DNA of 55,117 bases, counting the filler, from Jimgerdemannia flammicorona (taxonomy: Eukaryota), in the NCBI GenBank assembly GCA_003990765.1. It is 2 parts of 2 records of this genome, joined end to end, with 100 filler letters (N's around TTAATTAATTAA, not from the genome) between each part and the next. Parts side by side here need not be neighbours in the genome. Positions count along the whole stretch, not along the records: positions 27,619 to 55,117 come from RBNJ01000625.1; 1 more part is not named here. One strand, written 5' to 3'. Below the pieces are notes generated by a model, which worked only from the letters and a program-made list of their open reading frames with translations, did not search any database and was not told the DNA's origin. Below, in pieces: positions 18,263-48,554 of this stretch. Positions within the stretch are counted from its first letter, which is position 1, and the number at the start of each line of letters is the position of its first letter. The translations under genes were made by a program, and so were the position numbers.

Positions 18263-20295
18263 CAAGGCCCCAATCCAACCTACCATGAATAAGGAAGAAT
18301 AATTCTACAAGAAAATCAAAGATAGATTTGTACCAAGTGGCTGATTTCTCCATGGCATTAGAATGTACTCTTCCTGAATAATTGATGATTGCTTCTCTTG
18401 TGTCAATGAACTGGCCCAAAGAAGAACCAATAGAAGAAAAGCTCCTACAACCAAAATCACCTGCATTGAATCAGACAAACTACTTACACTCTAAGTCTTT
18501 ATCAATCAAGTATTTGTCAAGATTATGATAGACAGTAGAGCCTCAGACAACTTCATCAATGAAGAAACAGCCAACAGACTCAAGGTCCTGACCTCTCCAG
18601 TACAACAGACTTAAGCAGTTGCTATAGCTGATAGAACCTCTCATATCATTAGCAAGGAAGTCTGTAACCTACCCTTCCAAATTAGTGACTATCAAGTATA
18701 TGTTACCCTCCAGATTGTACCACTTTCTGACATGAAATTTTTCTTGGAACCCTATGATTGATTGGGTAAACCATTCCCTAACCATCAAGAAAGGATGCCA
18801 TAACTTCAAACTGTAAGGCAAAAGAGATCCACTCAGTTCCTGTGACCCTGGACCAAAGATCACCCACATCAACAAGCTATAACTCAAGAAATTGGCCAAG
18901 AAATGCCCTCTCTTTGCTATCTCCATCCGACCATCCAAAGGAGAATCCAAGAACTCTGAAGAAGATTTTTCCAAAGTTGATAGCCATGTCAGACCCCTAC
19001 TTCCGAAATTCTGAGACATATTTCCAAAGAAACTCCCAAAAGGCCTACCACCTAAATGAGTAGTAGACCATGTCATTAAGACCATCCCAGATGCCAAGCC
19101 AGCCTTCAAGTCAATCTATCATATGTCTCTGAGAGAAATTGATGTACTCAAGAAAGAGATTGATGAACTCTTAGAACAAGAATTCATTAGACCCAGTGTA
19201 TTACTCTATGGTATACTAGTCCTCTTTGTTGTCAAGAAAGGAGGAGACCTATGAATGTATATTGATTACCAAGATCTCAATGAACAGACCATCAAGAACT
19301 GTTGCCCACTACCCTGAATTGATGAAATATTTGATAGATTTACTAATCCACAATTTATGAGCTCTTTTGACCTGTAAAATAGTTACTGGCAAATTGCCAT
19401 GAAAGAAGAAGATATCTACAAGACAGTCTTCCAAACCCACTATAGACATTTTGAGTTTCTAGTTATGCCTTTTGGCTTAACTAATGCTTCTGCAACCTTC
19501 CAGATACTGATGAATACTATCCTATACCTATACCTGGACAAATTTGTTATTGTCTACATCAATGACATCCTAGTCTTCAGCAAAACCCTGGAAGAACATC
19601 TTGAATACCTTGAACTAGTACTACTGAAACTCTGAGAAAACAGACTCTTGCAAAACTCAGTAAATGTGAATTTCTTCTGAAGAAAATTCAATTTCTTAGA
19701 TACATTGTTACTCCCAATAGAATCAAAGTAGACCCCAGCAAAATCTCTGCAATCAAGGAATGGCCCAGACCTAAGAAGTTGAAAGACCTCCAGTTATTCC
19801 TAGGACTAGCAAACTACTACTGGCAATTTGTTGCAAATAGTGCTCCAAATGAGTCAATTGGAATAAAATCTGGATTTGATTTGTCACATGATGGTTTGAT
19901 CCAAATCTCAAATCCAAAGCCATCCAAATCAACTTGGATTAATCCTAATCACTCCATCCGAATTACCCTATCTGAATTATCCATCTGAATCACTCCATCC
20001 AAACCACTCCATCTGAACAACTCAATCTTAATTATTCAATCTGAATCACTCAATCTGAATCACTCAATTTGAATTACTCAATCTGAATCACTCAATCTGA
20101 ATCCTCCAATTCAAATCCTCTAATTCAAATTCTCTAATTCAAATACTTCAATCCAAATCCTCATCCAAATCCTTCAATCAAATCCTCCAATCCAAATTCT
20201 CTATTCCAAATCCTCCACATGACTCATATGTCAGATGCATCCATATATACAATATATACACACATGCAAACACATACATATGCACACACAAATAC

Positions 20296-22903
20296 ATATC
20301 AACAGATCAGTCTTCAACAGTTCACAGAATTAATGATGCTTCAAGTCAAACATCCCTAATAGTTCCACACCTTCTATGCAATCCTTGCTCCGAAATCTGG
20401 CAACATTGTGCTAAAATAGGAGATGATGTTATTTGTAATTATTGCAGGTAAAAAATTAAGATACACCTATTGATATAACTGAGACTTTTGTTTGACACAC
20501 ATGATACTGTTTCATTCACGACCATAAACTGCACCAGCCAGAAGTTCAAAATGCTTGGTGGTATAACTTCGAATATTGACACATAAAAGACAAACACTCT
20601 GACAAAATCAAAAAGAATACAGAGACAAATAAAATCAACATCCAAGCTGTGGTGGGTATGTTTATCCAATTGCCTGACCATTTCTGTATCAATAACCCCA
20701 TTTAATCAAAAATATTTAGCCATACTCTTCAGCAGAATTTCGAAATTGGCTTATTTGCTGAATTGTATACACAGACCAGCCATTCACAATCATCAAGAGT
20801 GATCAATTATATAGCATCTTTGGCCTCCTCAAGCATGACTTATATTTGCCAAGTACCAATACTATTTGCAAAGATGTCCTGGAGGCCTATAGGAAGGAGT
20901 ACAACAACCTCCACCAGATACTTCAGATAAAATAAAGGTAGCACTATGACCTTTGCAAGCTGAATTATATATATATTTTTATAAAGAGCTCACCAATTTA
21001 ACCTCACATTCAATAAGCAGAATTCAGCAGGCAAAATTTCATTTATAATCAATACATGGATATCCCCCAATGCAATTTCATTTCTGGGTATTACTGATCA
21101 TTAGATTGACCTTGATTGGTAGCTTAAATCTCTCATCCTTGACTTCATCAAACTTACTGACCCTCATTCTGAAGATAACATCACAGATGCTTTTATTAGT
21201 TGTATTCAGGAGCTTGGGATCACAACCAAGATAAAAGAGGGGGGCTTGCTGTCAGATTGGTGTTTTGAGAGAGGTCCTAAAACAAAACAGATTTTAATGG
21301 TTATTTATTTTCACATAAATTCGCTGACTAAATATTTCAAGTATAGATTTTGATCATTATGACAGACAATACCACAAACAACTCAATATTTTTCCAAGTT
21401 TTAGTGGCCAGCCTTAAATAGAAAAATGTGGCCTTCAGTACAGAAAGCTGTCATGTGCGATGCCAGGCCCATGTACTGAACCTCACTGTTCAGGACTATC
21501 TTACACATGTAGACAAAACATCTGAGAGAGGAGAGGCCCTGAGTATAATTTTCAAGCTACGCAAATTGGTTATATCAGTCCAATCATCACCACAATAATG
21601 AGACAAATTCACTATACAGTGTAAAGCAATTAGTTTAGCCCTGAAAGAGCTTATATTGGACATCTGTATGTATCGGAACTCAATATTTGCAATGATCCAG
21701 CATATGCTGGAGTTTGCTGTAGTATGCATCCTTTTTTCTTTAGTTGGCTGAAGTAACTTGTTTCGGATAATTGAAGAATTTTTTTAAAAAAAAACAAAAA
21801 ACAAAAAACAAAAAACAAAAAACAAAAAAAGTTAATAGATTCAATGGTGGCTACTGATAAGGAAATATGGGGCAAGGCTCTAGGTGAAAGCAAGTGGGAC
21901 ATACTTAGAAATGTTGTCAGAGTTTTGGAAGTAAGTGGTGATTTCTCTGGCTCCACACTCATTTTGTCTGCCTCTATACAATGCAATACCTCACCATATA
22001 TAACTGTCAGTGTTTTGATGATTATATGAAGGATATAGTCAAACAAATGACCCTGACAATAAGCTCTGAAATACTAGTATATAACCTTCTGATTGACTAG
22101 CTAGAGGACAAGCTTGAGGACAGGCTAGAGGGTTGTAGTGATTTACAGTTAAGCCTGGATCAGAGAGATACTATGGAGGTTACTCTAAGTAAGCTCAGAA
22201 AATACTACTCCAAAACAGATACTGCCATATACTCAATCAGTACAGATATATCAGCATATGGTTGTTGCCCCTTCCAAAACAGAGAAATCCCTATAAAAAA
22301 TCACTCTCTTTTTCTCCAAACAGTGCTGGACCCATGCTTAAAGCTACAATACCATAAAGATTAGGGCTGAGAGCAGCACTTCATTGGGAGAACCAAGCAG
22401 GCCATAATTGAAGTGTACTGGAAAAACTATACACTGCCACAAGGTTCTGGCTGAAGTTTGGATGAATATGCTGAGAGATTCCTTCTGTCCCACATTTACT
22501 TCAGCAGAAAGAGGAAGAGAGAGCCATTAGTGGAAGAGCTGCCATCAATAGATGAACTTACCATTTACCTCACCAGCGACCATGTGATCCTGCTGGAGGA
22601 TGCAAAGGTACTCAACTGATAGAAGGTAAGTTGTCAGGCAGACGTTGGGCCAATTTAACCCACCAATCTAACTACCGCTCTACCCACTGCTTTATCCACC
22701 AGAGCATGCAGCTACATCAAATGGACTTCCCCAGTCTGTGTGGTATGGCTTGGGACTACCTGGCAATTCCTGCCTCCAGCACTCCTGTTGAGTGGGTGTT
22801 CTCAAGTGGGGTGGACCTCATTGCCCCAAAGAGGTGTGTGCTGAATACTGAGACAATCTGAGCATATATATGTCTGAAGTCTTGGTGGGGCTCAGGCTGC
22901 TAA
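20296..22903 (+). pseudogene. hAT transposase, multi-exon (BED finger, DDE core, C-terminal dimerisation domain), copy A
   Basis: EIWQH...CNYC, WISPNAISFLGIT, TDN, RCQAHVLNL, RNSIFAM, VLDP, DYLAIPASSTPVEWVFS...CLKSWW. Confidence 0.88.
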
Positions 22904-23019
22904 AATTTGGTGAGTCCTGGGGATTCGTGGACAAGTTGGTTGGCCTTGTAGAATATTTAACACCTTTCAAAAATAAAAAGGAAAAAAAACCTGAGGACTC
23001 AGCTTGGAGTTTGTAGGGC

Positions 23020-23640
23020 AGTGGTCAGCAGAGAGAGCATGCAAAATTTGTGGCCCTCTGCCAGCAGCAAGGAGTATCTCCAAGCTACCAGTACTTGGGT
23101 TGGTGGGTGAGTTGGTGGGTACAGAGTTGGCAGAGAGAGTATGCAAAATTTGCAGCTCTCTGCTGACAGCAAGAGGTAACCCTAAGCTGCAAGTGTCCAG
23201 AATAGGGGGGTAGGTAGAGGGAGCATGCAAAATTTGTGGCCCTCTGCCAGTAGTGAGGGGCAGCCCCAAGCTGTCAGTGCCTGGGTTGGTTGGTGGGGTC
23301 AGTTGACAGGATCAGTTGGCATGGGGTCAGTGGAGAGAGTGCACAAAATTTGCAGCCCTCTGCTAGTGGCAAGGGGCAGCCCCAAGCCACAAGTATCCAG
23401 GGTGGGCAGGGCAGGCAGAGGGGCTCCCCCCAGAAGCCTGTGTCTGGGCCGAGGGTCAGTGGAGAGAGTGTGCAAAATTTGCAGCCCTTCACCAGCAGTA
23501 TAAGGGCAACCCCAAGCCACCAAGGAGTCCAAGTATGGGTTGGAAGGTGCTTCTGATGGTCAGAGGGTGCTTCTGGTGGTCAGAGGGTACTTCTGGCAGT
23601 CAGAGGGCATTTCTGGCAGTCAGAGGTTACTTCCGGTGAT
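23020..23640. repeat. Internal tandem repeats of hAT copy A (~90-130-bp units, then ~20-bp units)
   Basis: gagagagcatgcaaaatttgtggccctctgcc...ccccaagc occurs about 5 times; cttctggtggtcagagggt about 4 times. Confidence 0.8.
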
Positions 23641-23920
23641 TGAAGTCCACCACAGATTTAGGCTCCATTGCCAGTTCAGGTCCCACAGGCACCCTGGCCC
23701 TGCACCATAGTGTTACACCAGCAGTACTACAGAGCAGGATGAAGGGGCCAGTAGGACCTGGCATAATGGCTAAACTAGTACTACAGAAGAGGTGCCCAGC
23801 TACCAGCCCAACCTGTACAAAATGACTGCCGAACTCTTATGAAAAATTACCTAACCCTTACAAAAGATTGCCTAACCCTCACAAAAAATTGTCAAACCCT
23901 TACAAAAGATTGCTGAACCC

Positions 23921-25488
23921 TCACGAAAACTGCTCCACCTGCAAATCCCAGGCCTTGATGAGCCAGTCATCTGTTATAAGTGTGACAACTATTGTGTCTG
24001 AGCTCTCCTTGAAGATGACAGTACCATAGTGGTTATGTGGTTGGAATAGGACAGCTGTGTTGGCCACAAATGGGACCCTGAAACTATAGGTGAGATCATA
24101 CCAAACTTCGCCACTATCCTCTCAGATTGGGCCCTTCCTTTTCAGGACATAGAATATTATCAGGGTAATGTTGTTATCTGTGTGTATGGATAGAGAAATG
24201 TTGTGCCCAATGTATCCTGATGTGACACAAGCATACAGTTGGGTGAACCCTTGGCCCAGGACCTCATACTGCCAGGCTGTGCTGGTGGATGCCTGCTCTT
24301 GGTCCAGCCCCAGGAGTCCCAGCTTGGAAACCTGCCAAAACAAACAGCATCTGGTCAGTCCTTTTTGTATGTAGGGGGGCAGAAATCCCCTGGACCACAG
24401 AAACCCCCCAGGTCCCAAATAAAAGCAGAGCTCCTCACCTCATACAGTATGCTAAATTGTGCCAAGAATGTACATACAGCCATACTGAGATCACCACCAA
24501 GCTAGTCTGCTGTACACTCTACCAATCTGCTCAAAGAACCCCAGATCATAGCTGCCATCACTGCACAGGCCGTGTCATGCTCATGTGCAGTTTGCTCTTT
24601 GATGGCACTTCTAAAGTTCCAGTAGAGGTACAGAATCTTGTGCATCCCTGGAATTGTATCAAAAAAGAGTATGTTGGCAAAGAGTGTGATTATCTAGTGA
24701 GGAGTAAAAAAAAGAGAGATGAGTGCAGGGGATTTCAGAACTCCAGAACCCACCCTTCACCAGTGTTGCAGTATACTCAATTCCCATCCAAACCCCCCCT
24801 CTTTGCTTTTTTCATCCCCTCTTTCCTGCCACCTGGTATTTGATACAATCCTTGCAAACCTCATTGATGTGGTGGTGAAGCTTGTCACTATAGAGGTTCC
24901 TTATCACCATCACAACCACCTCTTTATGTTCATTAATAATAATATAGTTCTCTTCATCATTGGTTACTCCTGCTGGCCAATAGACCTCTTGGTCAAGAAT
25001 AATTGGCTCTGATTCAAATGTAGACCCCCAAGCCTTGATGATGATACTGGTACTACTTATGGTGAACATCTTGCCCTTGAATTTCTCTATTTGGTCAGAT
25101 GCTAGATGTGGTTGAACTTGGGTAACTTTGAACTCTTCTTTTTAATAGAACTGAGCTCTGATCTGTGGGGCCAAGATAAGAATGCAGATGGGTTGCATGT
25201 AGATGGGTTGTGTGCAGATGGATTGCATGCAGATGGGTTGTATGTGGATATCATGTGGGTGTTTTTAGAGAGAGACCATATAAAAAAAATGAAGTTAAAT
25301 AAAACACGGAGATGGGTATTTTAGAAAAAGAGCTTGAGTGAGTGAGTTGCATACCAATGAGTTGCAAGATTGCTCATAAAGGCTTGCTTCTGTTCCTTTT
25401 GAGACTTCTGCCACATGATGTATTGACTCAACAACTCAGCCACCAAAGGCATACCCCACAACATCTGCCAGCCTTTCTTTATCTTGAC
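23921..25488 (-). pseudogene. hAT cargo gene copy A: TET/JBP-like Fe(II)/2OG dioxygenase (5' part cut off by copy B)
   Basis: TSGYIGHNISLSIHTDNN...EDSGEVWYDLTYSFRVPFVANTAVLFQPHNHYGTV; same intron positions as copy C. Confidence 0.7.
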
Positions 25489-27518
25489 TAGTGCTCCGAA
25501 TGAGTCAATTCGAATCAAATCTGGATTCGATTCATCACATGATGGTTTGATCCAAATCTCAAATCTGAAGCCATCCGAATCAACTCAGATTTAATCTGAA
25601 TCGCCCCATCCGAATTGCCCCATCCGAATCACCCATCTGAACCACCCCAATCTGAATCACTCAATCCGAATCACTCAATCCAAATCACCCCATATGAATC
25701 GCCCCATCCAAATCACCCATCTGAATCACCCATCCAAACCACCCCAATCCAAATCACTCAATTCGAATCACTCAATCCGAATCACTCAATCCGAATCACT
25801 CAATCTGAATCACTCAATTCGAATCCTCCAATTCGAATCCTCCAATTCGAATTCTTCAATCCAATTCCTCATCCAAATCCTTCAACTGAATCCTCTAATC
25901 CAAATCCTCCACATGACTCATATGCTGGACATGTCTACAACACAATACACACATATACATACACACACACACATACACATATACACATAAACATGCAAAC
26001 ACACATGTTGACAGATCAGTCTTCAACAGTTCACAGTACCAATGATGCTTCAAGTTAAACATCCCTGATAGTTCCACACCTTCCATGCAATCCTCGCTCC
26101 AAAATCTGGCAACATTGTGCTAAGATAGGAGATGACGTTGTTTGTAATTATTGCAGGTAAAAAATTAAGACACACCTATTGATACTTTGCTTTGACACAC
26201 ACATGATATTGTTTTGACACACACATGATATTGTTTCATCCACCCCCATGAACTGTACTAGCCAGAAGTTCAAAATACTTGGGGGTACGACTTCGAACAT
26301 GAATCGACACATAAAAGACAAGCACTCTGACAAAATCAAAAAGAACATAGAGACAAATAAAATCGACATCCAAGCTGTGGTGGGTACGTTTATCCGATTG
26401 CCTGACCATTTCTGTACCAACAACACCATTTAATCAAAAATATTTAGCTATACTCTTCAGCAGAATTTCGAAATCGGCTCATTTACTGGATTGTATGCAC
26501 AGATCAGCCATTCACAACTATCAAGAGTGATCAATTGCATAGCATCTTTGGCCTCCTCAAGTATGATTTATATTTGCCAAGTACCGATACTATTCACAAA
26601 GATGTCCTGGAGGCCTATAGGAAGGAGCACGACAATCTCCACCAGACACTTCAGGTAAAATAAGGGCAGTACTGTGACCTTTACAAGCTGAATTATATAA
26701 AAGAGCTCACCAATTTAACCTCACATTCAATAAGCAGAATTCAGCAGGCAAAATTTCGTTTATGATCAACACATAGACATCCCCCAATGCAATTTCATTT
26801 CTGGGCATTACTAGTCATTGGATTGACCTCGATTGGCAGCTTAAATCTCTCACCCTTGACTTCGTCAAACTTGCTGGCCCTCATTCTGGAGACAACATCA
26901 CAGATGCTTTTATTAGTTGTATCTGGGAGCTTGGGATCACTACCAAGGTAAAAAAGGGGGGCTTGCCATCAGGTCGGTGTTTTGAGAGAGGTCCTAAACC
27001 AAACCAAACCAGATTTTATTGGTTACTTATTTTCACATAAATTTGTCAACCAAATATTTCAAGTACAGATTTTGGCCATTACGATGGACAATGCCACAAA
27101 TAACTCAACATTTTTCCAAGTTTTAGTGACCAGCCTCAAACAGGAAAATTTGGCCTTCAGTCCAGAAAGCTGCCATGTACGATGCCAGGCCCACATACTG
27201 AACCTCGCTGTTCAGGACTATCTTATACATGTAGACAAAACATCCAAGAGAGGAGGGGCCCTGAGTATAATTTCCAAGCTGTGCAAACTGGTTGTGTCAG
27301 TCCAATCATCCCCACAATGACGAGACAAATTCACTGTGCAGTGTAGGGCAATCAGTTTAGCCCTGAAAGAGCTTATATTGGATGTCTGTATGTGTTGGAA
27401 CTCAACATTTGCAATGATCCAGCGCACACTGGAGTTTGCTGTAGTATGCATCCTTTTTTTCTTTGGTCAGCTGAAGCAACTGTATTGGATGATGGAAGAT
27501 TTATTTTTTAAAAAAAAA
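25489..27518 (+). mobile_element. hAT copy B, nested in the cargo gene of copy A; runs into the assembly gap
   Basis: TIR TAGTGCTCCGAATGAGTC at 25489 interrupts the cargo exon (...LVKIKKG). Contains BED finger, MDNATNN, RCQAHILNL, CWNST. Confidence 0.9.
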
Positions 27519-27618
27519 NNNNNNNNNNNNNNNNNNNNNNNNNNNNNNNNNNNNNNNNNNNNTTAATTAATTAANNNNNNNNNNNNNNNNNNNNNNNNNN
27601 NNNNNNNNNNNNNNNNNN
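27519..27618. other. Artificial 100-nt gap linker (N44-TTAATTAATTAA-N44)
   Basis: The 12-mer gives stops in all six frames and sits between two runs of 44 N. Confidence 0.95.
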
Positions 27619-28226
27619 TTTTTTTTTTTTTTTTTTTTTTTTATATAGTCACTTGGACTTCATCCTTTATTACACCCATCTATCCTATATAAATATAGTG
27701 GTCCTACCCTATCTGATCCCCCTATCTGTTACCCTTTCTCCTATCTGTGATAGCCATCTCTCCTCCCATCCTGACAATATCTAAAAAGCAGTCACCTATA
27801 TCAGAACTGTATTTACTGGGAAGCTCACCAAAGCCAGAGAGCTCCACTACAGATACTGAGGACCTATAGGTAACCTACACTAGACACTTGATGCCCAAGG
27901 TCAGCAAACTCCCTATATAGCTCATAATATACTGAGACAGTACCTTATTGGTAACAGTAAAAGGAAAAAGGCACTATATCAAAATAAATATACTTCAGAT
28001 ATAGCCAAAGGCACTAGAAACTATGAAAAAGTAGAGAAGATATCAATCTGACACTAATAAAGGGGCAACTCATCACCATTGTCTCCCTTCCACTACTCTG
28101 TAACAGATACAGCAAACCAACCTAAGATAGAGGGAGTAATAATTGTAAAAAGTAGACTTGGAAGATTATCTACTAAATCATTATAACTGGTAAGATAGTA
28201 AAAAAAAGGAGCTTGGTAGTGAGAGA
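27619..28226 (-). mobile_element. 3' end of a LINE (poly(A) tail and decayed C-terminal zinc finger), interrupted by the Gypsy 3 LTR
   Basis: Poly(T) then tatagtcacttggact...cctttattac matches the reverse complement of the 3' end of the LINE at 47147-47174. SCPF...HSF*C remnant. Confidence 0.65.
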
Positions 28227-28662
28227 TATAACAAAATTACATTTCAACATCACAAAAAGTGATGTCATCAGACTGATATTATCAGATTTATGTCACTAGC
28301 AAGGTTATATACTAGAAAAACTAAGAATATTAGTAAGATCATAATGATTTTACACTAATTTTAGCTCTCTTCAGTCAGTGACATCATAGTAGTCACACTA
28401 GTCTCTAGTGCTCCAAATGAATGGAGTTGATCTGGATGAGATTTGATTCAGATTCATCATGTAATGGATTCAAATCAACTCAGATTGGTCTCGTGATCTG
28501 ATCTGGATTGATCCATCCAGATTGAAATCTTTGGTGACGTCATCCTTTCTTTTATTCATTTCACTCTTGTTTTTTTTTTTCTGTCACACTTTGGTGACAT
28601 CACCCTTTCCTTTGTTCCCTCTCTTTTCTTTGTTCTTTTTCTTTGTTCTTTCCTGCCACATC

Positions 28663-30764
28663 ATGAGCAAACAAAGCAGCAGCCCTTAATTTGTACGTTG
28701 GTCCAGTCTACTCATTTTTCACCCTGCAATGATCATCAAAAGAGGGGTATTCGAGGTGGAAATGTACTCTCTGTTGATAATGTTAGATTCTTTCTCATAT
28801 AGACAGCACACAAACTGCTCATCAAGAGCCAAAGGGGCGATGGTGGTGGTGGTGGCGATGGCAATGGCGGGGATGAGGGAGAATTCCAGCAACAACTCAT
28901 AGTGGCCCTTTGGACCTCAGAATTCACAGACCTCACAGCTATGTACATGGCATCCTTTTTAGAGTAGCTGATAGTAGATGTAGATTGCTCACTTGGCTGC
29001 CACTTGTTTACTTATGTTTATTTAAACTTCTCCAGCATGACTCAATTTACCTTATGCTTTTCTTAGAGTCCACAGCTCTATGGCAAGATCTGCCAACTTT
29101 ATTCGCAACATCTGGTCAAGATGAAGAAAGGCTGGTGGACGTTGTGGGGCATGCCTTTGGTGGCTGAGCTGTTGAGTCAATGCATCACGTGGCAGAGGTC
29201 TCAAAAGGAACAGAAGCAAGCCTTCATAAGCTATTCTTGTGCAACTTATGCAACTCGTCGGTGTGCAACTCGTCGGCATGCAGCTCACTCACTCATGCTC
29301 TTTTTCTGAAATACCCATCTCTGTGTTTTATTTAATTTCATTTTTACATAGTCTCCCCCTAAAAAACACCTATACCTACATGCAACCTGCATGCAATCCA
29401 TCTGCACACAACCTGCCTGCATACAACCTGCCCACACGCAACTCGCCCGCAACCTGCCCACATACAACCTGCCTGCACACAACCCGTCTGCATACTTATC
29501 TTGGTCTCTCAGATCAGGGCTCAGTTCTATTGGAAAGGAGAGTTCAAAGTTACCTGAATTCAACCACATCCAGCATCTGATCAAATAGAGAAATTCAAGG
29601 GCAAGATGTTCAGCATGAGCAGTACCAGTATTGTCATCAAGGCTTGGGGGTCTACATTCGAATCAGAGCCAATCGTACTCGACCAAGGGGTCTATTGGCC
29701 AGCAGGAGTAACTAATGATGAAGAGAACCATATCTTTATTAACGAATGTAGAGAGGTGGTTGCGATGGTGGTAAGGAACCTCTACAGTGACAAGCTTCAC
29801 CATCATATTAACGAGATTTGTGAGGATTGCATCAAATACTGGGTGGCAGGAAAGAGGGGGCGAAAAAAGCAAGGAGGAGGGGTTTGGACGGGAATTGGGT
29901 ATACTGCAATACTAGCGAAGGGTGGGTTCTGGAGTTCTGAAATCCCCCACACTCATCTCCTTTTTTTTTTTTAACCCCTCCCCAGATAAATCACACTCTT
30001 CACCAATATACTCTTTTTGATATAATTCCAGGGATGCACAAGATTCTATACCCCTACCAGAACTTTAGAAGTATCATTGAAGAGCAAACTGCGTACAAGT
30101 ATGATATGGCCTGTGCGGCGATGGCAGCTATGATCTGAGGTTCTTTGAGCAGATTGGTAGAGCGTATGGCAGGCCAGCTTGGTGGTGATCTCAGTGCAGC
30201 TGTACATACATTCTTGGTACAATTTAGTATGCCATATGAGGTGAGGAGCTCCGCTTTTTTGGGGTACTGTAGCCCAGGGGGTTTCTGTGGCCCAGGGGGT
30301 TTCTGCCCCTCTGAACGCAAAAAGGACTAACTAGTTACCATCCATTTTGGTAGGTTTCCAAGCCAGGGCTCCCAGGGCTGGACCAAGGGCAGACATCCAC
30401 CAGTACAGCCTGACAGTATGAGGTCCTGGGCCAAGGGTTCACCCAACCATATACTCACATCACATCAGGATATATCAGGTGCAATCTTTCTCTGCCCACA
30501 CATACAGACAACAATATCACCCCAGTAATGTTTTATATTCCAGAAAGGAAGGGCCCAACCTGGGAGGATAGCGGCAGAGTCTGGTATGACCTCACTTATG
30601 GTTTTAGGGTCCTGTTTGCAGCCAACACGGCCATCCTATTCCAACCACATGACCACCATGGCACTGTTACCTTCAAGGAGAGCTCGGACACAATAGTCAT
30701 CACACTCACAATGGACGATAGGCTCATCAAGACCTGGGACTGGCGGGTGGAGCAGTTTTTGTGA
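28663..30764 (+). pseudogene. hAT cargo gene copy C: spliced TET/JBP-like Fe(II)/2OG dioxygenase
   Basis: Phase-consistent exons ~29590-29921, 30032-30240 and 30354-30764 (GTGGGT..CCAG; GTGAGG..GACTAAC..TAG). HTD at 30501-30509, HHGT at 30654-30665. The 5' exons are less certain. Confidence 0.72.
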
Positions 30765-30974
30765 GGGTTAGGCAATCTTTCATGAGGGTTAGGTAGCCAT
30801 CTTGTGCAGGTTGGGCAGTCTTATGTAGGGAGATTGGGCCAGGCACCTCTTATGTAGTACTAGCTTAGCCATTATATAGGGCCCTATCAGTCTCTTGGCC
30901 TTGCTCTGTAGTGCTGCTGGTGCGGCGCTGCAGTGTAGGGCCGGGGTGCCTGTGGGACTCAAACCAGCGACTTC

Positions 30975-31500
30975 AACTGCCGGAAATGCCCTCCAATCAC
31001 CAGAAGCACCCTCTGACTGCCAGAAGCACCCTCCACCCCAGACTCCTTGGCAGCTTGGGGCTGCCCCTATGCCACTGGCAGAGGGCCGCAAATTTTGCAC
31101 ACTCCCTCTGTCTGCCCTGCCCATTCCAGACACTTGTGGCTTGGGACATCCCCTTGCTGCCGGCAGAGAGCCACAAATTTTTGCATGCTCTCTCCGCCGA
31201 CCCCATGCCCGCCAACTGACCCTGCCCACTGACCCAGATACTGACAGCTTGAGGCTGCCCCTCGCTGCTGGCGGAGGGCCACAAATTTTGCATGCTCCCT
31301 CTGCCTACCCCCTGATCCGGACACTTGCGGCTTGGGGCTGCTCCTTGCTGTTGGTGGAGGGCCGCAAATTTTACATGCTCCCTCTACTGACCTGCCCACT
31401 GCCCACCAACCTGGGCACTAGCAGCTTAGAGCTGCCCCTTGCTGCTAGCTGAGGGCTGTAAATATTGTACACTCCCTCTGCCGCCAACCCTGCCCCACTT
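30975..31500. repeat. Internal tandem repeats of hAT copy C between the convergent genes
   Basis: Reverse complement of the arrays in copy A (gagggccgcaaattttgcatgctccctctg about 5 times). Confidence 0.8.
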
Positions 31501-31610
31501 TGGCCGCAAACTCCAGGCTGAGTCCTCAGGTTTTTTTTTCCTTTTTATTATTTTGAAAGGTATTAAATATTCCACAAGGCCAACCAACTTATCTGCAGAC
31601 CTGCCAAATT

Positions 31611-32675
31611 TTAGCGGCCCAAGCCCCATCAAGACTTCAGACACATATATATCCGGATTGTCTCAGTATTTAGCATACACCTCTTTGGAGCAATGAGGTC
31701 CACCCCACCTGAGAACATCCACTCAACAGGAGCACTAGAGGCAGGAATCGCCAGGTAGTCCCAAGCCATACCACACAGGCTGGGGAAGTCTGTTTGATGC
31801 AGCTGCATGCCCTGGTGGGTAGAGCAGTAGTTAGATTGGTGGGTTAAATTGGCCCAACACCTGCCTGATAACCCACCTTCCACTAGTTGAGTACCTCTGT
31901 GCCCTCCAGCAGGACCATGTGGTCACTGGTGAGATAAATAGTAAGTTCGTCTATTGATGGCAGCTCTTCCACTGACAGCTCTCTCTTCCTCTTTCTGCTG
32001 AAGTAAATGTGGGACAGGAGGGATCTCTCAGCATATTCGTCCAGACTTTGGCCAGAACCTTGCAGCAGTGCATAGTTTTTCCGGTACACTTCAATTACAG
32101 TCTGCTTGGTTCTCTCAATAAAGTGCTGCTCCCAGCCCTGATCTTTATGGTATTGTAGCTTTAAGTATGGGTCCAGCACTGTTCAAAGAAAAGGAGAGTG
32201 AGTTTTTGTGGGGTTTCCTCTGTTTTGAAAGGGGCAACAGCCACACGCTGACATCAACATACCTGTACTGATTGAGTATATGGCAGTATCTGTTTGGGAG
32301 TAGTATTTTCTAAGCTTGCTTAAAGCAACCTCTATGGCATCTCTCTGATCCAGGCTTAACCATAAATCACCACAACCCTCCAGCCTGTCCTCGAGCTTAT
32401 CCTCTAGCTGGTTAATCAGAAGGTTGTATACTGGTATTGCAGAGCTTATTGTTGAGGTCGTTTGTTTGACTATATCCTTCATACAATTGTCAAAACACTA
32501 GTAGTTATATGTGGTGAGGTATTGTATTATGCAGAGGTAGACAAAACAAGTGTGGAGCCAGAGCAATCACCACTTACTTCCAAAACTCTGACAATATTCC
32601 TAAGTATGTCCCACTCACTTTCACCTAGAGCCTCAGCCCATATTTCCTTGTTGGCAGCCATCGTTGAATCTATTG

Positions 32676-32709
<34 letters not shown>

Positions 32710-34201
32710 AATCTTCCATTATCTGAAACAGTTGCTTCAGCCAACTGAAGAAAAAAAGGATGCATACCACAGCAAACTCCAGTGCATGCTGGATCATTGC
32801 AAATGTTAAGTTCTAATGCATACAGATGTCCAATATAAGCTCTTTTGGGGCTAAACTGATTGCTCTATACTGCACAGCAAATTTGTCTCATTGTTGTAGA
32901 GATGATCGGACCAACATAACCAGTTTGCATAGCTTGGAAATTATACTCAGGGCCTCTCCTCTCTCAGATGTTTTGTCTATATATATAAGATAGTCCTGAA
33001 CAGCGAGGTTCAGTACGTGGGCCTGGCATCATACATGGCAGCTTTCTGCACTGAAGGCCACGTTTTCCTGTTTGAGGCTGACTGCTAAACCTTGGAAAAA
33101 TGTTGAGTTATTTGTGGCATTGTCTATCATAATGGCCAAAATCTGTACTTGAAATATTTGGTTGATAATTTTATATGAAAATAAGTAACCAATAAAATCT
33201 GATTTGATTTAGGACCTCTCTCAAAACACCAACCTGACAGCAAGCCCCCCTTTTTTATCTTGGTAGTGATCCCAAGCTCCTGAATATAACTAATAAAAGC
33301 ATCTGCGATGTTGTCTCCAGAATAAGGGTTAGCAAGTTTGACGAAGTCAAGGGTGAGAGATTTAAGCTGCCAATCAAGGTCAATCCAATGACTGGTAATG
33401 CCCAGAAATGAAATTGCATTGGGGGATGTCCATGTGTTGATCATAAATAAAATTTTGCCTGCTGAATTCTGCTTATTGAATGTGAGATTAAATTGGTGAG
33501 CTCTTTTATATAATTCAGCTTGCAAAGGTCATGGTGCTGCCCTTATTTTACCTGAAGTGTCTGGCGGAGATTGTCATGCTCCTTCCTATAGGCCTCCAGG
33601 ATATCTTTGCGAATAGTATCAGCACTTGGCAAATATAAATCATGCTTGAGGAGGCCAAAGATACTATGTAATTGATCACTCTCAATGGTTGTAAATGGCT
33701 GGTCTGTGTACACAATCCAGTGAATGAGCCGATTTCGAAATTCTGCCAAAGAGTATGACTAAATATTTTTGATTAAATGGCATTATTGGTACAGAAATGG
33801 TCAGGCAATCAGATAAATGTACCCACTACAACTTGGATGTCAATTTTATTTGTCTCTGTGTTCTTTTTGATTTTGTCAGAGTGCTTGTCTTTTATGTATC
33901 GATTCATGTTTAAAGTTATACCCCCAAGCATTTTGAACTTCTAGCTGGTGCAGTTCATGGGAGTGGATGAAACAATATCATATGTATGTCAAAACAATAT
34001 CATGTGTATGTCAAAACAAAGTATCAATAGGTGCATCTTAATTTTTTACCTACAATAATTACAAACAATATTATCTCCTATCTTAGCACAATGTTGTCAG
34101 ATTTCGGAGCAAAGATTGCATAGAAGGTGTGGAACTATCAGGAATGTTTGACTTGAAGCATCATTGGTACTGTGAACTGTTGAAGACTGATCTATCAACA
34201 T
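31611..34201 (-). pseudogene. hAT transposase, multi-exon, copy C
   Basis: ORF-track pieces: AEFRNRLIHWIV..DQPFTTIES, WTSPNAISFLGITSHWID, LRKYYSQTD, LDPYLKLQY, DYLAIPASSAPVEWMFSGG. Confidence 0.9.
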
Positions 34202-34299
34202 GTGTGTTTGCATGTTTGCATATGCATGTGTATGCATGTATGTATATGCATGTATGTGTGTTATGTTGTGGACATATCCAGCATATGAGTTATGTGGAG

Positions 34300-34692
34300 G
34301 ATTCGGATTGAAGGATTCAAATTGGAGGATTCGAATTGGAGGATTCAAATTGGAGGATTCGAATTGAAGGATTCAAATTGAGTGATTCAGATTGAGTGAT
34401 TCAGATTGAGTGATTCGAATTGAGTGATTCAGATTGGGATAGTTCAGATGGGTGATTCAGATGGGTGATTCAGATGGGGCAATTCAGATGGGGCAATTCG
34501 GATTGAGTGATTCAGATTGAGTGATTCAGATTAGGGTGATTCAGATAGGTGATTCAGATGGAGTGATTCAGATGGAGCGATTCAGATTAAATTCAAGTTG
34601 ATTCAGATGGCTTTGGATTTGAGATTCAAATCAAACTGTCATGTGACGAATCAAATCTGGATTTGATTCAAATTGACTCATTCGGAGCACTA
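34300..34692 (-). repeat. hAT subterminal repeat array (~14-bp CCGAATCACTCAAT / CCGAATCACCCAT units); also at 19940-20215, 25590-25910, 54100-54445
   Basis: Seen directly next to the TIR in all four copies. Confidence 0.85.
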
Positions 34693-37600
34693 CTAGTCTC
34701 TGTACTAGTTTAGTATGAATATGCCTCAGAAATAGACTAAAGATGCTAAAAATAACATGGGACTAAATTAGTCTTCAGTTACATTGATATTATAAACTAA
34801 AATAGTCTATAATATTATAGAAACTAGAATATATTGAAATTAGTCACTAATATCATCAGCCCTCTGATGTTAGGAGCTAGTAAGATCTTTAAGACCAGTG
34901 ACTTCATGGGCTAAACTAGATCATAATAAGCTATGAAATCATAGTTGTCATATACTAAAATAGTTTGCTTGATAAATAAACCATAAGATCAGAACTAGAC
35001 TCTAATGAGTTTAGTATTATATTATCTGAATTTGAGACTCTGAGAGAAGTCTTATCTCTTTTTAGAGAAGTCTATTACTATTATATGATATAATGAAACA
35101 CTACATCATAAGTCTCAGTCAAAATCTAGAACAATTATCTCATAACTAGCATATGAAAATGACATTATTAAATAGTATTATTATAACTTTATAATAATAC
35201 TGATATAACTTTTATATATTATTTCTAGTAACTTTCTGTCTTATATCTTCTAGCAAATAGTTAGTCAATATATAAATTCTTTAAAAATATATAAATACCT
35301 CCAAGTAAGCAACTCAATAAAATATAAGAATATTCAGAATATTTACAGAAATATTTATAGAACAATTAAGACTTAAAAAGTCTATAATATATAGATAAGT
35401 CTCTGAATAACTTAAACTAAAAAAGACTATATCTAAAAATAGATGTTCTGAACTCTATAAATACTGAACTCTGAAGAATCTAAATATAATTCTCAGAACT
35501 AGACTATATCTAAAAAGAGTATACTAAAAGACTTAGACTTTAAAGAATTAAAGTCTATAATTATCAAATTGTTATCTAAGTCTATCAGAAGGAGACTAGA
35601 TTAATTAGAAGTATAATAGACAGTATTTAGATATTAAGACAGCTGCTTCCTCAAGCTATAGATACTTGATATAAGTGCCTTGAAGTTATTAATATCAAGA
35701 ATTATTAACTTAAAGGATATGTATAACTATTAATAATAGTAAAAATATACTATTATAATTAGTAGCAGTAGAATCTATAAGCCAATCTGGTATAAGATAA
35801 ATAAAGAATTGTTAAACAGCCCACTAGCTATTACTGAACAAATTCTTTAGGAAGTGACTAGATACATACTCTGAACTCTCAAATAAGAGAAAAACAGAAT
35901 ATAAAGACTATTATTAACTAAGAAAGCGAATATAAAGAACAACAATAAGAACTTATTGAACATTTTGCTTAAAATTTATATTCAGAATTCTGTGAACTAT
36001 ATCCAGTATTAAGAAGAGATACAGACCTTCAGAAAAAGTTTTACAGATATATAAGATAACATATATATAGAGCAGAAATACCTGAATCAGTTGCTTAAGT
36101 AATAAAATAATTTCTTAAATTAATTTCTATTGAAATAAAACCTACTGTTCTTCAGTAGATTAATTCATCTTATTATTACTCTACTAAAAGAAATAGTCAT
36201 CTTTACTTCAGTTATCTAAGTCATAAGACTATCTATATATAAGAACTATAAAGACTAGAAACTCTTAAAATAACTACTCAGGAAATTCAATATAAAGAAC
36301 ATATAATCTATTTTGATACCCAACAAGAACCAGACACCTCTTCTATACTTAGTTCAGAAAAAGACTAAACAGAATATTTATCTACTAGATAATAGACATC
36401 AGTAGGAAGACAACCTCTAGAATTAACAAGTCTAGAACCTAGTGCAAATTTATTAGAAGCTAGGGAATTACTTAAAACCCTTGCCTCAGAAATTTATATA
36501 TCTTCATACTCAGTACCTATTTCTTACTTAGAACCAGAACCTAAACTAGAAGATATATATTCAGATTCTAAATATGAACTATAATAGAAGACCTTTCTGA
36601 AACAGAAAGCTTACCAGATATATTATCTAAAGAAAAGGAGAAAGCAATAGACCTCTTAGAAGATGAAGACCTTGAAAGACTTTTTGAAGAAATCTCTGAA
36701 GACTTAGATAAACCTTTTAGAGGACTAGGGTTTATATCTGAATCAATAACTCTAATAATGACTACTGATGCATTAACAAAATAACTAGCAGTATATAGGA
36801 CAAATAGCAATTATGAATTAACTAGCTAAAGTACTATCAATTTCTACTTTTGGAGGAATATCTACAGATCTATCAGTATTTATAAGTATAGTAGATAATA
36901 GATACAAGTGCAACAGTTGGAATGATCAAAGAAACCCAGACTCTATCTTAGTAAAGAATATATTATATACTGCAGAGAAAGTCTTTGCAAAAGCCCAAGC
37001 TCAAACTACTAAAGTAGCTACATATTTTTAAGATTCAGCTATTCTCTGATATCATAACTTAAATCCTAAACTCCTTACTTAGGAAGATAGAATTGGAGTA
37101 ACTAAACAAGATACAACAAGATACTACAAGAGACCAACTAGGATATCTACAAATCTCTAAAGTAAGAGAACTTAAATATTTCCTAAAAAGTTATTTTTTA
37201 AGTCCTTTACTTCTTACAGACATAAGAGTATAATTAGAAGTCATGAAATAGGATGAATAAAGCAAAGAAAATCTAGAAGTCTTTGTAGCAAGAATAGAAG
37301 CCTCCTTGAATATATTAGAACTTTCTTATAATTCTGATAATAATATCTCTAATAGAACTAGAGCAAATTACTTTTTCCAAAGTATTTCTCTATAGTTATC
37401 CAGAAAAATTAAGGAAATAGAAATCTTTATAGACTATCTTTATGATCAATGGTACTTCAGATAAGCAGTATCTAGAGTAAGAATAGTCTTAGCAATATCT
37501 GCTACTATCAAATATAGATAATAGAATAATATAAGAAACTCTGAGTAAGCTTCAAGTAAACTCTATCAAGACTCTAGAAAAAGAAATTAAAACAGAGAAA

Positions 37601-38685: not shown

Positions 38686-40030
38686 ACCATTTGTGACACC
38701 TTTCTCCTGTATAATTCACATTACACAAACTTCAAGCAATAGTTTTCAATATAACTCAGAGAAAAGGTATTATAAAAATGTCATCAAGCAAGAGTTCTGA
38801 TGGGCATGCTAGGTCTGGTGGACCTGGAGCTTTTGGCTGGCAGTATGTGGAGAGAGGATATGAATTGGAGATGGGGGCTTTTGGAGGATCAAAGGGTAGC
38901 AAAGGCTCTGAAGGAGGACTAGTGTCTGGTGGATCTGGGGGAAGACCTGGTCTCTTCAGCTTTGCTGACAAAGTGAAGACGAGTGGATGGCCTGCTAGAA
39001 CCAGGGCTGGCACTGCTGAGGGGAAGGGCAAGACTAGCATCAGGAGAGAGAGTGGCCCTCAGAAGGGAGATGGGAGTATAGAGGCTGGAGGGACTATAGC
39101 TGGGGGTGTGACTGTTGATGGGAGTGTGATGGGAGATTAGGAAAAAAAAAGAGATATGATGGCTGATGGTCAGGTGAGGCAGGGGGTCCCAATGCAAAAG
39201 GGGGACCTGATGGATGGTATAATAGAGCTGATAGTGGCCCCATTGCTCAAGAAATAAATCTCAGAGTTTGTAGCTACCCTGTGCTTTCAAGGCTTGATAG
39301 TGATAGTGAGGATGGTCCTGGGACTGATTTCAAAGCAGGTGGCTGGGGCAGTCTTAGTGAAGTTCCTGAAGGGTCTGGAGGGGGTTGAGGTGGGCTTTGA
39401 GGAGGCAGGCCCACTGGATGAGACCCTGAAGACTGGAGTAGTGATTGGGGAAGTGGTGGTCTCCATGGTACAGTACTTGAGGTGGGACCCCAGGGTAGTG
39501 CAGCTTCTGGTGAGGGGGGTGCTGACAGTGATGAAGGAGAAGACTAGGAGGAGGGTGGAGGAGGTGATGGTAGAGTATAGTGACATAGTAGACATTGGCT
39601 TCCAGATGTAGGAGGGGACCACATTCAGGACAGGTGATGTTGATATCAGGATTTAGCTGGTAGGGAAGGAGGCTACAGAGAAGGCGAGTGACTGGCCCTT
39701 GGTGCTAATGTGGGGGGCTTTTGTCTGTAAGGTATCAAGGGTAAAAGGGAGTGAAAAGGAGGAGAAGGACTTGTTGGAGGCTCTGGAGGAGTTGAGTGGT
39801 ACAGTTGAGAGGAGGGTGAAGGTCTGGAGAGTGTTTGAGGAGTCAATACATCTGGAGATTGTGGATGGGAAGTGTATTTGCACTGATAAGAGGCAGTGGG
39901 AGTAGGCCCAGGGGTGCAGGAGGCAGAGAGAGTTATTGGCAAGTATGAAAGAAGGAGTAATAAAGAAGATAGATAGGGCTGAGGTGTCTGGGGGTACCAA
40001 AGCCAGTGTCTGGGCTAGTAAAGGAGAAGA
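38686..40030 (+). mobile_element. 5' fragment (UTR + ORF1 N-part) of an L1-clade LINE inserted after the Gypsy 3 protease
   Basis: GAFGWQYV, SFADKVK, VKFLKGLEGVEVGFEE and EEKDLLEALE are homologous to ORF1 of the LINE at 41404. Confidence 0.8.
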
Positions 40031-40255
40031 AAAGATGGAGGCAAACAAGAAAGGAGCTGGGAAGGTACTGAGCAAGGACCCCTATGCAGATGGCATGTTT
40101 GAAGTCTGGAAGCAGAATTTGGATACCACCTCCCCCCCTCTTACCAGGAGGGATCTGGCTGTAAAGAGAGGGGCAACAGAGGATGTACTGATACAGGGGG
40201 CCCAGCAAGTGCACTTTGGGGTCCCCAATGTGGTGAAAGGGGGCCAGGTAGTAGT
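40030..40255 (-). mobile_element. Short inverted LINE ORF2 fragment (post-RT region)
   Basis: YYLAPFH...QIPPGKRGGGGIQILLPDF resembles the LP..RGGLGL.DF segment of L1 ORF2. Confidence 0.45.
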
Positions 40256-40349
40256 GCTTATTTATAGTATTACTCAAAAAGAGTACCTCTAACACTTAAG
40301 AGAAGTCTTTACTATACTGAGAAAAAATCAATTATATATAAATAATATT

Positions 40350-41403
40350 AAGGACTTCTGTTATTCCTATAATCTATGTCAAAGAAATAAGACAAGAAAT
40401 CAAGTACCTCTAGGACTTCTTCAATCTTTATTAATATCTACTAGAATTAAGATTAGATTGCCTTAGACTTTATAGTAAGATTATCCAAAACTAGTTAAGG
40501 AAAGAATGCTATAGTACATAGTATTCATAGATAGACTTAGCAAATAAGTATGCTTTGAATCTAATACTACTACTATCACTGCTCTAGAAATAGCAAAGAT
40601 TTTTCTGTATACCATTTTTAAACTATATAAACTACCCTCAGTAATAGTCTCAGATAGAGACTCTAAGTTTATAAGTACTTTCTAGAAAGCATTCTTTGGA
40701 ATAATAAATATTAAGTTATTATTCTCTACTTTCTATTATCTACAAACTGATGGTCAGACAGAAAGAACTAATAGAACTCTTAAACAAATGTTGAGAATAT
40801 TCTATGATTACAAATGAGATAACTGGGACCAATATCTCTCATTGGCAGAATTTACCTATAATAATACCAAATAGTTATCTACTCAAATGATATCTTTCTT
40901 TATAAATACTGGTCAATATTCACAAACTCTGGTAACTATAGAAAAATCTATAATATCTGCAGCAGAAGACCTTACAGTAACTATTGAAAATATCATACAG
41001 TTAGTATAAAAAGAATTACAAAAGGCAGAAGCAATAAGTCATATATATTAACTAATATAGAAGAAAAGTTTACTTTGAAGTAGAAGACTTAGTTCTCTTA
41101 GAAGTCTTTAATATAACTGTAGAAAATCAGACTGAGCATTCTAAATAAAGCTTATTTCCAAAATATATTAGACCCTACTCAGTTAAAAAAATAATATCTA
41201 ATATATCATATCAATTAGAACTCTCTCAAGATATGAAGATATATAATATATTTCATGTCTCACTACTCAAGCAGTATACTTTAAATAAAATTCCTAATTA
41301 GGAAATACTCCCACTATCACTAGTAATAATTAAAGAATAACCAGAATATACTGTGGAACAAATTTTAGACTGCTAAGTTATAAAAAGAGGAAAAGAAATC
41401 TTT
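40350..41403 (+). pseudogene. Gypsy 3 integrase + first half of chromodomain
   Basis: LCQRNK, LDFIVRL, IDRLSK, IVSDRDSKF, QTDGQTERTNRTL, YIRPY, IYNIFHVSLLK, EYTVEQILD. Confidence 0.85.
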
Positions 41404-41483
41404 CGATGGCACAACCCTTTCACCAGTAACATTTGGGTGACACAAGACTCAGACAACACTTTTTACAACGTTTTTGGTGTCTG

Positions 41484-43412: not shown

Positions 43413-43443
43413 GTTGGGGTCTCTTCTACAATGTCTATTCAAT

Positions 43444-46400: not shown

Positions 46401-47106
46401 CCTGTGAGGCCTAGGTGGTGACCTGTGGCCTGAAGCCTGGCAGAGGGTTGGAATCAGGGAAGAGTGGAATTGGAATGAGCTCTGGCTTTGGAGCAAATGG
46501 GTGAGGCAGTAGCTGCCCCCCAAGTTCTGATTGGTGTAGTGGTGGATCCTACAGCAGAATGTGATGCTGAACTATCAGTCTGGTCACTTGGTGGATGGTG
46601 GGGTATTCGAGTGCAAGGATTGTTTCAATGTTGGTCAGGAGGGAGGAGTGGTACAAATGCCTGAACATTGGCTTAGCAAGTGTGAGGTTTTGGGGGAGTT
46701 CTGGAGATATATAATGGACAGGTTAGGGTTGGAACCTGGGGGAGGGGAGGGAGGGGGGAGATGGGGAGAGCTTCGCCGGCGATTAGTGGGTGGGGTCGGA
46801 GATGAATGGCTGACCCTTGGCTGGACCTTGGCTATGTGGGTTGGGTTGGCAGGGCATTGGGTGCATGTATTTGAGAACAGGCATCAGGTTGGGGTTGGTG
46901 AAAAGGTGGCATAGTGGGAATGGTTGCTGTTGGACATTTTGAATAGCTGGTGGTGGGGTTGGGGTATGGGTGGGGGGTACCACAGGGATTTGGTACAGTA
47001 TATCTCCCAGAAGAGTGGTGGGAGGGTTCAGGTAGTGGGTGATTGAGTGGTGCTCGGGTAGGGAGAGGTTGAGGGAGGGGGGTTGGGCCCCCGGGGCATT
47101 GGTTGA
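43444..47106 (+). pseudogene. LINE ORF2: APE endonuclease + RT + C-terminal zinc finger, several stops
   Basis: SLNVNGL, LLQD, GGDFN, SRIDWVL, SDH; GEDGLP, PIMLL, QCGFV, LDQEKAYDRV, GVPQGDPLSP, FADD, SGAKLN, YLGI, GGLGLVDF; CKDC...EHWLSKC. Confidence 0.92.
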
Positions 47107-48220: not shown

Positions 48221-48554
48221 TGTAATGAAATTATATTTCAATATCATAAAAGGTAATATCATCAGGCTGACATCATTGGATTTATATTACCAGCAAGATA
48301 TATGCTAGAAAAACTAAGAATATTAGTGAGATTATAATGATTTTATACTAATTTCAGCTTTCTTCAACCAGTAATATCATAGTAGTCACACTAGTCTTTA
48401 TACTAATTTAGTGTGTATTCACATTGATATCACTATATACATGCTTCAGAAATAGACTAAAGATGTTAAAAATAGTATGAGACTAAATTAGTCTTCAGCC
48501 ATATTGATGTTATAAACTAAAATAGTCTATAATATTATAGAAACTAAAGTATAT
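48221..48554 (+). repeat. Truncated 3' LTR of Gypsy 3
   Basis: TGTAATG start after a purine tract; similarity to the 5' LTR ends at ~48554. Confidence 0.8.

Follow-up and report, generated by a model that had tools for sequence, protein, structure and literature searches.

What does the second gene of a transposon from Jimgerdemannia flammicorona encode, and what could such a gene have done for the element that carried it? We analyzed a window of 55,117 nucleotides (the whole stretch of DNA considered here, assembly GCA_003990765.1), which has a GC content of ~40% and consists of repeat-rich eukaryotic DNA. Comparison of the window with itself revealed four copies, A to D, of one element of the hAT superfamily, and both copies that extend across the relevant region (A and C, 2/2) contain a spliced cargo gene. 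A preliminary description of this locus, made by inspection of the DNA, had proposed that the cargo is a TET/JBP-like dioxygenase. We put the probability at roughly two in three that the four copies belong to a hAT family whose cargo is a divergent Fe(II)/2-oxoglutarate (2OG) dioxygenase, with the PE-type TET/JBP-like proteins apparently being its closest described relatives. PE is one of three types, PU, AG and PE, into which the available text of a recent survey sorts the TET/JBP proteins of transposons (Kojima 2025, Biology 14:1741, PMC12730594). The predicted assignment is supported by conserved metal-binding motifs, by protein-language-model neighbors and by a by-eye match to PE-type proteins.

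To classify the carrier, we looked for short terminal inverted repeats (TIRs) beginning YAG, an 8-bp target-site duplication (TSD), a C-terminal dimerisation domain, and a BED zinc finger with an RNase-H-like DDE core. All four copies start with TAGTGCTCCRAATGA. Chance alone would give 0.29 exact occurrences of the 15-bp TIR in the window; we counted five, at the two termini of copy C and at the 5′ terminus of each of A, B and D. Both ends are present in copy C alone (28406-34692, minus strand in the sense of the transposase), the other three copies being truncated. Its left TIR, TAGTGCTCCAAATGA (28406-28420, plus strand), matches the 15-mer exactly, and the inverted partner, TAGTGCTCCGAATGA, lies at 34678-34692 on the minus strand. 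Directly outside these ends, the octamer CTAGTCTC occurs at 28398-28405 and is repeated at 34693-34700. At 48391-48398 we found a paralogous empty target site, CTAGTCTT, a single uninterrupted copy with matching flanks (28222-28407 versus 48213-48400, 83% identical; 34721-34800 versus 48441-48520, 89%), which fixes the boundaries of copy C. Copy C had landed in a repeat, a second copy of the host sequence being located 14-20 kb away at 83-89% identity.

The TSD of copy C, the only two-ended copy, is probably 8 bp long, a reading consistent with the symmetry of the TIRs. We preferred it because a 7-bp duplication (TAGTCTC) requires an extra 3′ C without a TIR partner, and because such a TSD would need a G in front of the 5′ TAG, where the four copies have A, C, C and A. 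Remnants of the transposase, in several frames, occupy 31620-34250 on the minus strand; they were recognized from the list of open reading frames (ORFs) and from a Pfam match to PF05699 (Dimer_Tnp_hAT) at 31632-31922 (minus strand, E 2.1e-9, 37.5 bits versus a cut-off of 21.4). Pfam gave no relevant match in the six other transposase fragments that were scanned (for the other four from copy C, no match of any kind), and a C..C-type motif at the N-terminus of the broken transposase was noticed by eye only. Together, the TIRs, the flanking duplication, the empty site and the Dimer_Tnp_hAT domain identify the family of copy C as a hAT DNA transposon. The claim that copy C is a hAT element bounded by TIRs and a TSD was therefore borne out.

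The cargo gene is found on the plus strand of copy C (29121-30764) and on the minus strand of copy A (23921-25482), and it converges on the transposase gene in both. Guided by homologues, we modeled four exons with a total of 1143 nt, or 381 codons, and intron phases of 0/1/0. In copy C, all on the plus strand, exon E0 (29121-29225) has 35 codons, begins with the ATG at 29121 and matches the N-terminus of the homologous protein P0003 by eye. Exon E1 (29513-29921) aligns to P0003, to a second homologue, P0007, and to exon 1 of a metagenomic locus, L001, all of which are described below; the AKG/MH junction of exon E2 (30032-30249) is spanned by the uninterrupted ORFs of P0003 and P0007; and exon E3 (30354-30764) encodes an HTD motif and a distal His before a natural stop at 30762. 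TGA stops interrupt E1 at 29555, E2 at 30136 and E3 at 30411. The introns that we label 1 and 2 have GT..AG borders in copies A and C alike, and the donor of the first intron, after E0, reads AT rather than GT in both copies. This donor sits in a former CpG (TTC|GT), from which we infer a deamination hit.

The preliminary description had placed the start of the gene at 28663, where the ORF that opens is just 8 codons long and lies outside the gene; homologues support a start at the ATG at 29121. Its multi-exon gene, convergent with the transposase in copies C and A, was confirmed, with four exons and homologues reaching E 3e-58, and all of the peptides that it quoted are present in the copies. 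In the ancestral element, a hAT transposase gene converged with a gene of four exons and ~380 codons from a rare protein family; both A and C support a two-gene hAT element with a spliced second gene.

Both cargo copies are now pseudogenes. Stops fall at codons 50, 207 and 264 in copy C and at codons 42, 152, 220 and 314 in copy A, in which the start codon also reads ATA. As had been proposed for the last two exons, no stop is common to the two copies, and neither contains a frameshift. Each stop differs by one transition from the sense codon of the other copy, except at codon 42 (TAA in A versus TGG in C), where two transitions are needed. Copies A and C have an overall identity of 84.8%, and 90% of their 820 differences are transitions; difference rates peak at CpG (0.455 per site), followed by CpA (0.238), and the CpG observed/expected ratio of the window is 0.17. 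The present state is thus one of decay through methyl-cytosine deamination, and the earlier suggestion that repeats in this genome are being deaminated holds for these copies. TCG-biased hypermutation, as described for Pucciniomycotina in the available part of PMC12730594, was not seen here, the rates being 0.64 at ACG, 0.51 at CCG, 0.43 at GCG and 0.33 at TCG, and the decay thus offers no hint of a rust host.

Beneath this decay, the copies retain a record of an intact gene. We observed no gaps between A and C in 1143 coding columns, versus 8 gap events in 489 bp of intron and 16 in 836 bp of spacer. The two copies differ at 143 codons, with 55 synonymous and 88 nonsynonymous changes, a ratio that we did not interpret because of the mutation bias. 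The cargo gene was once open and under coding constraint.

We then searched 1.84 billion proteins by HMMER with exon 3 as the query, and six proteins were returned at E of 0.001 or better. Five are relatives of the cargo: P0001 (E 3.2e-58, 78% identical), P0002 (E 1.8e-29), P0003 (E 2.5e-10; full length at 374 aa, an uninterrupted ORF), P0004 (E 1.4e-8) and P0005 (E 6.2e-5). The sixth, P0006 (E 2.6e-4), was set aside as spurious, being a repeat protein of 1472 aa that was hit in 10 stretches. A search with P0003 added P0007 (259 aa, an uninterrupted ORF). The P0003 and P0007 ORFs cross the predicted exon junctions unbroken (..YAKG|MH.. and ..PY.E|..), which supports the splice model. Word-indexed searches extended the set no further: none of the 34 candidates scored when exon 3 was compared with longer proteins, P0003 retrieved P0007 only, and the profile A2 gave nothing new.

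A metagenome scan recovered the same gene at two loci, L001 and L002, in AT-rich DNA and with introns at the same two positions. L002 is nearly identical to L001, and C/T and G/A changes in its coding sequence, several of them at CpG, give stops in exons 1 and 3. Metagenome or run assemblies are the source of all of the relatives, none of which is annotated beyond "hypothetical protein". The cargo is a member of a real gene family. In the host of L001 and L002, a relative of the cargo again resides within repeated DNA under deamination. Downstream of the gene in L001 (3490-3640), short repeats of the GATTTGA type are followed by TTGACTCGTTGGAAGCTCAT, which agrees at 14/20 positions with the terminal TTGACTCATTCGGAGCACTA of the window element; the exact TIR pattern of the window is absent from both L001 and L002. 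Judging from this similarity, TTGACTCGTTGGAAGCTCAT may mark where a related hAT ends, in which case the link to hAT elements would recur in a distant host.

Three lines of evidence, each indirect, tie the cargo to TET/JBP enzymes: motif conservation, protein-language-model neighbors and the by-eye match to PE-type proteins. The His and Asp of an HxD motif are kept in 7/8 aligned rows, as is a distal His ~50 residues away (7/8). Rows read H-[TV]-D at the His motif; P0004 (HVN) and the pseudogene of copy A (Tyr) account for the departures from the HxD and distal-His pattern. When residues 100-374 of P0003 were used as the query for a protein language model, the best neighboring clusters scored 0.96 (Basidiomycota) and 0.95 (Mucoromycota). 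Twelve of 30 hits lay in clusters with PF12851 Tet_JBP (16% of members), six in clusters with PF20515 2OG-FeII_Oxy_6 (15% of members), and the clusters of the other 12 carry no family. Judging from its name alone, we take PF20515 to be a family of 2OG-Fe(II) oxygenases; a literature search returned no paper on PF20515 or 2OG-FeII_Oxy_6.

The likeness to PE-type proteins was found by eye, unscored, against the rows available from PMC12730594. Near the N-terminus, E[IV]VAMV[YV]RN[FL] agrees at 8/10 residues with the row of a Tuber family. There follow a GY[ST]A strand, a G-x-C-A shortly before the His motif and an E/K-R after the next strand. The block YG.R....A.NT....Q....HGT agrees at 10/23 residues without gaps, and P0003 agrees with an Agaricus row at 11/37 residues, also ungapped, from LD.GG to HG. 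These blocks are colinear, with GG..F/Y...YG.R....A.N[TS].......HG[TS] equally spaced in the two groups. Both groups, moreover, are missing the Arg of the PU type (PE rows read Q-G-M-S-F), both occur as the second gene of a DNA transposon, and both are missed by the Tet_JBP model of Pfam. Among the TET sequences of Table S1 of that survey, as far as they could be searched, HTDNN, THVD, GYTV, YGFR and DHHGT are absent, and the single occurrence of YGFG falls in an unrelated part of a PU-type row.

Several observations weigh against a TET/JBP-like assignment. The cargo family is tied neither to TET/JBP nor to any other 2OG oxygenase by an alignment score: Pfam, PF12851 and PF20515 included, gave 0 relevant matches (three window fragments and P0001-P0005 at E up to 10; three exons of L001 at E up to 1), PHROGs gave nothing meaningful, and the PDB, searched four times by sequence or profile, returned no chain of TET2, NgTet1, CcTET, CMD1 or JBP1 (0 matches for the A2 profile, 0 for P0003, one chance match to TFIID at E 1.2 for the A4 profile, and only a repeat-inflated WD40 match for exon 3). 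AlphaFold2 reached a mean predicted local distance difference test score (pLDDT) of 36.1 (A2, P0003) and 37.6 (A4, P0007), so that neither of the two runs (2/2) gave a usable model of the predicted double-stranded beta-helix fold. The match to the PE type was judged by eye, and the cargo family reads HxD where, in the rows available, HxE is the hallmark of PE. In addition, activity is known for no PE- or PU-type protein, according to the available text of PMC12730594, and the cargo copies in A and C, both dead, are silent on current function.

A further point concerns the Arg after the distal His. The family has no conserved counterpart of the one that follows this His in PU-type rows (..SRLGLS..): at His+20/21, an Arg occurs in P0003, P0007, P0001, P0002 and window copy C but in neither P0004 nor L001. 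In TET/JBP enzymes, a conserved Arg after the distal His binds 2-oxoglutarate. When the window was scanned with regular expressions for three PU-type-like motifs, only the distal-His motif of the cargo itself was found. The proposal of a TET/JBP-like dioxygenase therefore fared unevenly: the HxD...H signature, the neighbors and the by-eye PE match stand in its favor, whereas it gained neither a Pfam or PDB score nor a confident AlphaFold2 model (pLDDT 36.1/37.6).

Could the cargo instead be 2OG/Fe(II)-oxygenase-like but fall outside the TET/JBP lineage, acting on a protein or a small molecule, with its PE likeness reflecting the core common to all such oxygenases? The neighbors of exon 3 alone would suit such an enzyme, as they score at most 0.88 and belong to generic 2OG-oxygenase clusters, mostly PF13640, PF03171 and HalD, and so would the missing Tet_JBP match in Pfam and the missing conserved Arg at the PU-type TET position. 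However, with the longer query, all 18 of the family-bearing neighbors among the 30 hits were Tet_JBP or 2OG-FeII_Oxy_6 (18/18), and no other oxygenase family appeared. The by-eye PE blocks also lie partly outside the metal-binding core (EVVAMV.RN and the GY[ST]A strands), and the available PE rows are themselves without the Arg (Q-G-M-S-F). Finally, the transposon context fits the TET-positive transposons of PMC12730594, in so far as that source is available. Taking both sides together, we consider an oxygenase from outside the TET/JBP lineage unlikely.

If the cargo is the divergent TET/JBP-like dioxygenase that we favor, the enzyme would oxidise 5-methylcytosine or another modified base on the DNA of its own element. 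Such oxidation might relieve silencing by CpG methylation and lower the rate at which methylated C mutates to T, and the transposase would move both genes together. The same self-demethylation role has been proposed, with no experimental check, in the available text of Kojima 2025 (PMC12730594). The preliminary description had pictured a two-gene hAT system that modifies 5mC or T, possibly on the DNA of the element itself; since both cargo copies are pseudogenes, no such system can be operating at this locus. In the window, the hAT family has lost its contest with methylation, as its transition-riddled pseudogenes and the low CpG ratio of 0.17 attest.

The gene might alternatively have conferred nothing on the transposon. 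Under passive capture of a host gene (transduplication), the cargo would be useless to the element and the two copies would share it by common descent. hAT elements are known to take up fragments of host genes, and only two copies could be examined here, both of them dead. Passive transfer of TET genes between transposon families is likewise inferred by Kojima in the text available to us (PMC12730594). What copies A and C contain, on the other hand, is no fragment: it is a whole gene, its four exons running from start to stop and its GT..AG introns intact, and its 1143 coding columns accumulated 0 indels while introns and spacer together accumulated 24 gap events. The distant relative in L001/L002 is also located in repeated, CpG-decayed DNA beside a hAT-like terminus, and the protein searches made here returned no single-copy host version among their matches. 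These features make a useless passenger a distinctly improbable explanation.

That no oxygenase is encoded at all, the motifs arising by chance or from a WD40-like repeat tail, is very improbable and close to refuted, because the one match in its favor (phmmer, exon 3 against the PDB, E 7.6e-11 to the designed 8-bladed WD40 protein Tako8, residues 80-114) is an artefact that sums eight identical weak repeats of 7.3 bits each with an individual E of ~45, Pfam gave no WD40 domain, and the homologues conserve the entire length of the protein, HxD and distal His included.

The remaining features of the window concern the architecture of the elements and their surroundings. In copy C, a spacer of GC-rich tandem repeats (30880-31500; unit roughly 90-100 bp, or about 85-115 bp over both copies) separates the converging genes, and its counterpart in copy A occupies 23023-23411; terminators or regulatory sites serving the two genes could lie within such a spacer. 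A subterminal array of 14-nt repeats, a repeat family seen in the self-comparison, lies at 34286-34589. Copy A (19838-25488, plus strand) is oriented opposite to copy C and lost its end through the insertion of copy B, of which the window contains only the first 2 kb (25489-27518, plus strand), up to an N linker. The TIR of copy B starts ~7 bp upstream of the cargo start codon of copy A (25482-25503), from which we conclude that copy B inserted into copy A, a nested hAT insertion; the ~700-bp remainder of copy A lies outside the window. Copy D (53997-55117, plus strand) is cut by the end of the window.

The linker at 27519-27618 consists of the 12-mer TTAATTAATTAA between two runs of 44 N and resembles an artificial six-frame-stop linker between contigs. 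If it is artificial, the halves 1-27518 and 27619-55117 need not be neighbors in the genome, and copies A and B would stand apart from copy C. The insertion of copy A splits an ORF (19614-19837) that has, by eye, a Ty3/gypsy-like reverse transcriptase/RNase H junction motif (..FLGLANYYWQFV); a Pfam scan of this ORF gave no match at E 0.01 or better. Farther along the window, strand asymmetry is strong (39000-47000 and 49000-53000), with a GC skew of +0.35 to +0.58 over 42-47 kb and of -0.45 to -0.54 over 49-53 kb. A reverse transcriptase of the non-long-terminal-repeat type (RVT_1, 44623-45834, E 2.3e-24) falls within the positive-skew region at 42-47 kb, and the pattern of skew resembles depletion of C on one strand in oppositely oriented retroelement copies. 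One soil-metagenome DNA run contains 12% of the sampled window words.

How does this element compare with what has been described? According to the available text of Kojima 2025, TET/JBP genes occur in 11 lineages of fungal DNA transposons, hAT included (PMC12730594), and our literature search found no other relevant paper. The preliminary description had known of no hAT carrier, a claim that is out of date now that hAT7 of Puccinia is in print with TET genes (PMC12730594, available part). The locus is thus one more instance of a phenomenon already published, rather than the first. A contest between a transposon-borne candidate demethylase and silencing by CpG methylation is likewise a published idea, to which this locus adds a combination of carrier and cargo outside the published survey; it displays the losing end of that contest, in element copies that decayed almost wholly by transitions. 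The overall picture is unchanged, in that the phenomenon is in print and the assignment of the cargo is predicted from sequence. What the comparisons suggest as new is a canonical-looking hAT other than hAT7, a cargo that appears PE-like but reads HxD, and a family unseen by Pfam.

These features may, tentatively and at slightly less than even odds, mark a fourth lineage of transposon-borne TET/JBP-like dioxygenases, sister to PE but with HxD, carried on canonical hAT elements with an 8-bp TSD and occurring beyond the three fungal classes published so far. Pointers in that direction are the relative in L001/L002, which stands beside a hAT-like terminus on AT-rich contigs of soil eukaryotes, and the Mucoromycota cluster that ranks second among the protein-language-model neighbors. 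Were such a lineage real, DNA transposons would have captured base-oxidising enzymes earlier, and more widely among eukaryotes, than the published survey found. Known TET sequences were the seeds of that survey, and whole lineages like the cargo family would be missed by surveys of this kind. The invisibility of the cargo family to sequence searches of Pfam and the PDB hints that TET-seeded surveys under-count such elements.

With human TET2, Naegleria NgTet1 (structure PDB 5CG9, as cited in PMC12730594), Coprinopsis CcTET, Chlamydomonas CMD1 and trypanosomatid JBP1, the cargo family shares the HxD...H triad and the distance of ~50 residues from HxD to the distal His. It also has 12/30 of its protein-language-model neighbors in clusters with 16% Tet_JBP members. 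It differs from these enzymes in having neither a PDB sequence or profile match nor a match to PF12851. Sequence methods reach little further for the PE type itself: in the available text of PMC12730594, PE-type proteins show a likeness in predicted structure to CMD1, NgTET and CcTET at E below 1e-5, and HHpred matches them to CMD1 only at E 1.4. Besides the HxD motif, the carrier sets the cargo apart from this type, as the available part of that paper does not give a hAT element as a carrier of PE.

The nearest published counterpart of the whole element is TET-positive hAT7, which comprises 20 families in six Puccinia species, with 7-bp TSDs and a PU-type cargo (PMC12730594, available part). 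Both are elements of the hAT superfamily that carry a TET/JBP-type second gene (putatively so in the window) in host DNA under C-to-T decay. Their ends differ: hAT7 consensus sequences start with CAACGGTGGGC or CAGCGATGGGC (five P. graminis rows), whereas the window element starts with TAGTGCTCC. In the searchable text of the supplement, which holds the first 400 nt of each consensus, TAGTGCTCC occurs once, inside an unrelated EnSpm, and the window element is probably not among the published families as far as that supplement is searchable. The TSD, 7 bp in hAT7, is probably 8 bp in the window element. In the rows available, the hAT7 cargo has PU-type motifs (GG.MW.IGWRK, ..H.D.ND.., ..SRLG.S.Q), whereas the window cargo looks PE-like by eye. 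Lastly, in the P4-lineage hAT7 families, as presented in the same part of that survey, the transposase gene is preceded by a TET gene upstream of it in the same orientation, whereas the two genes of the window element converge.

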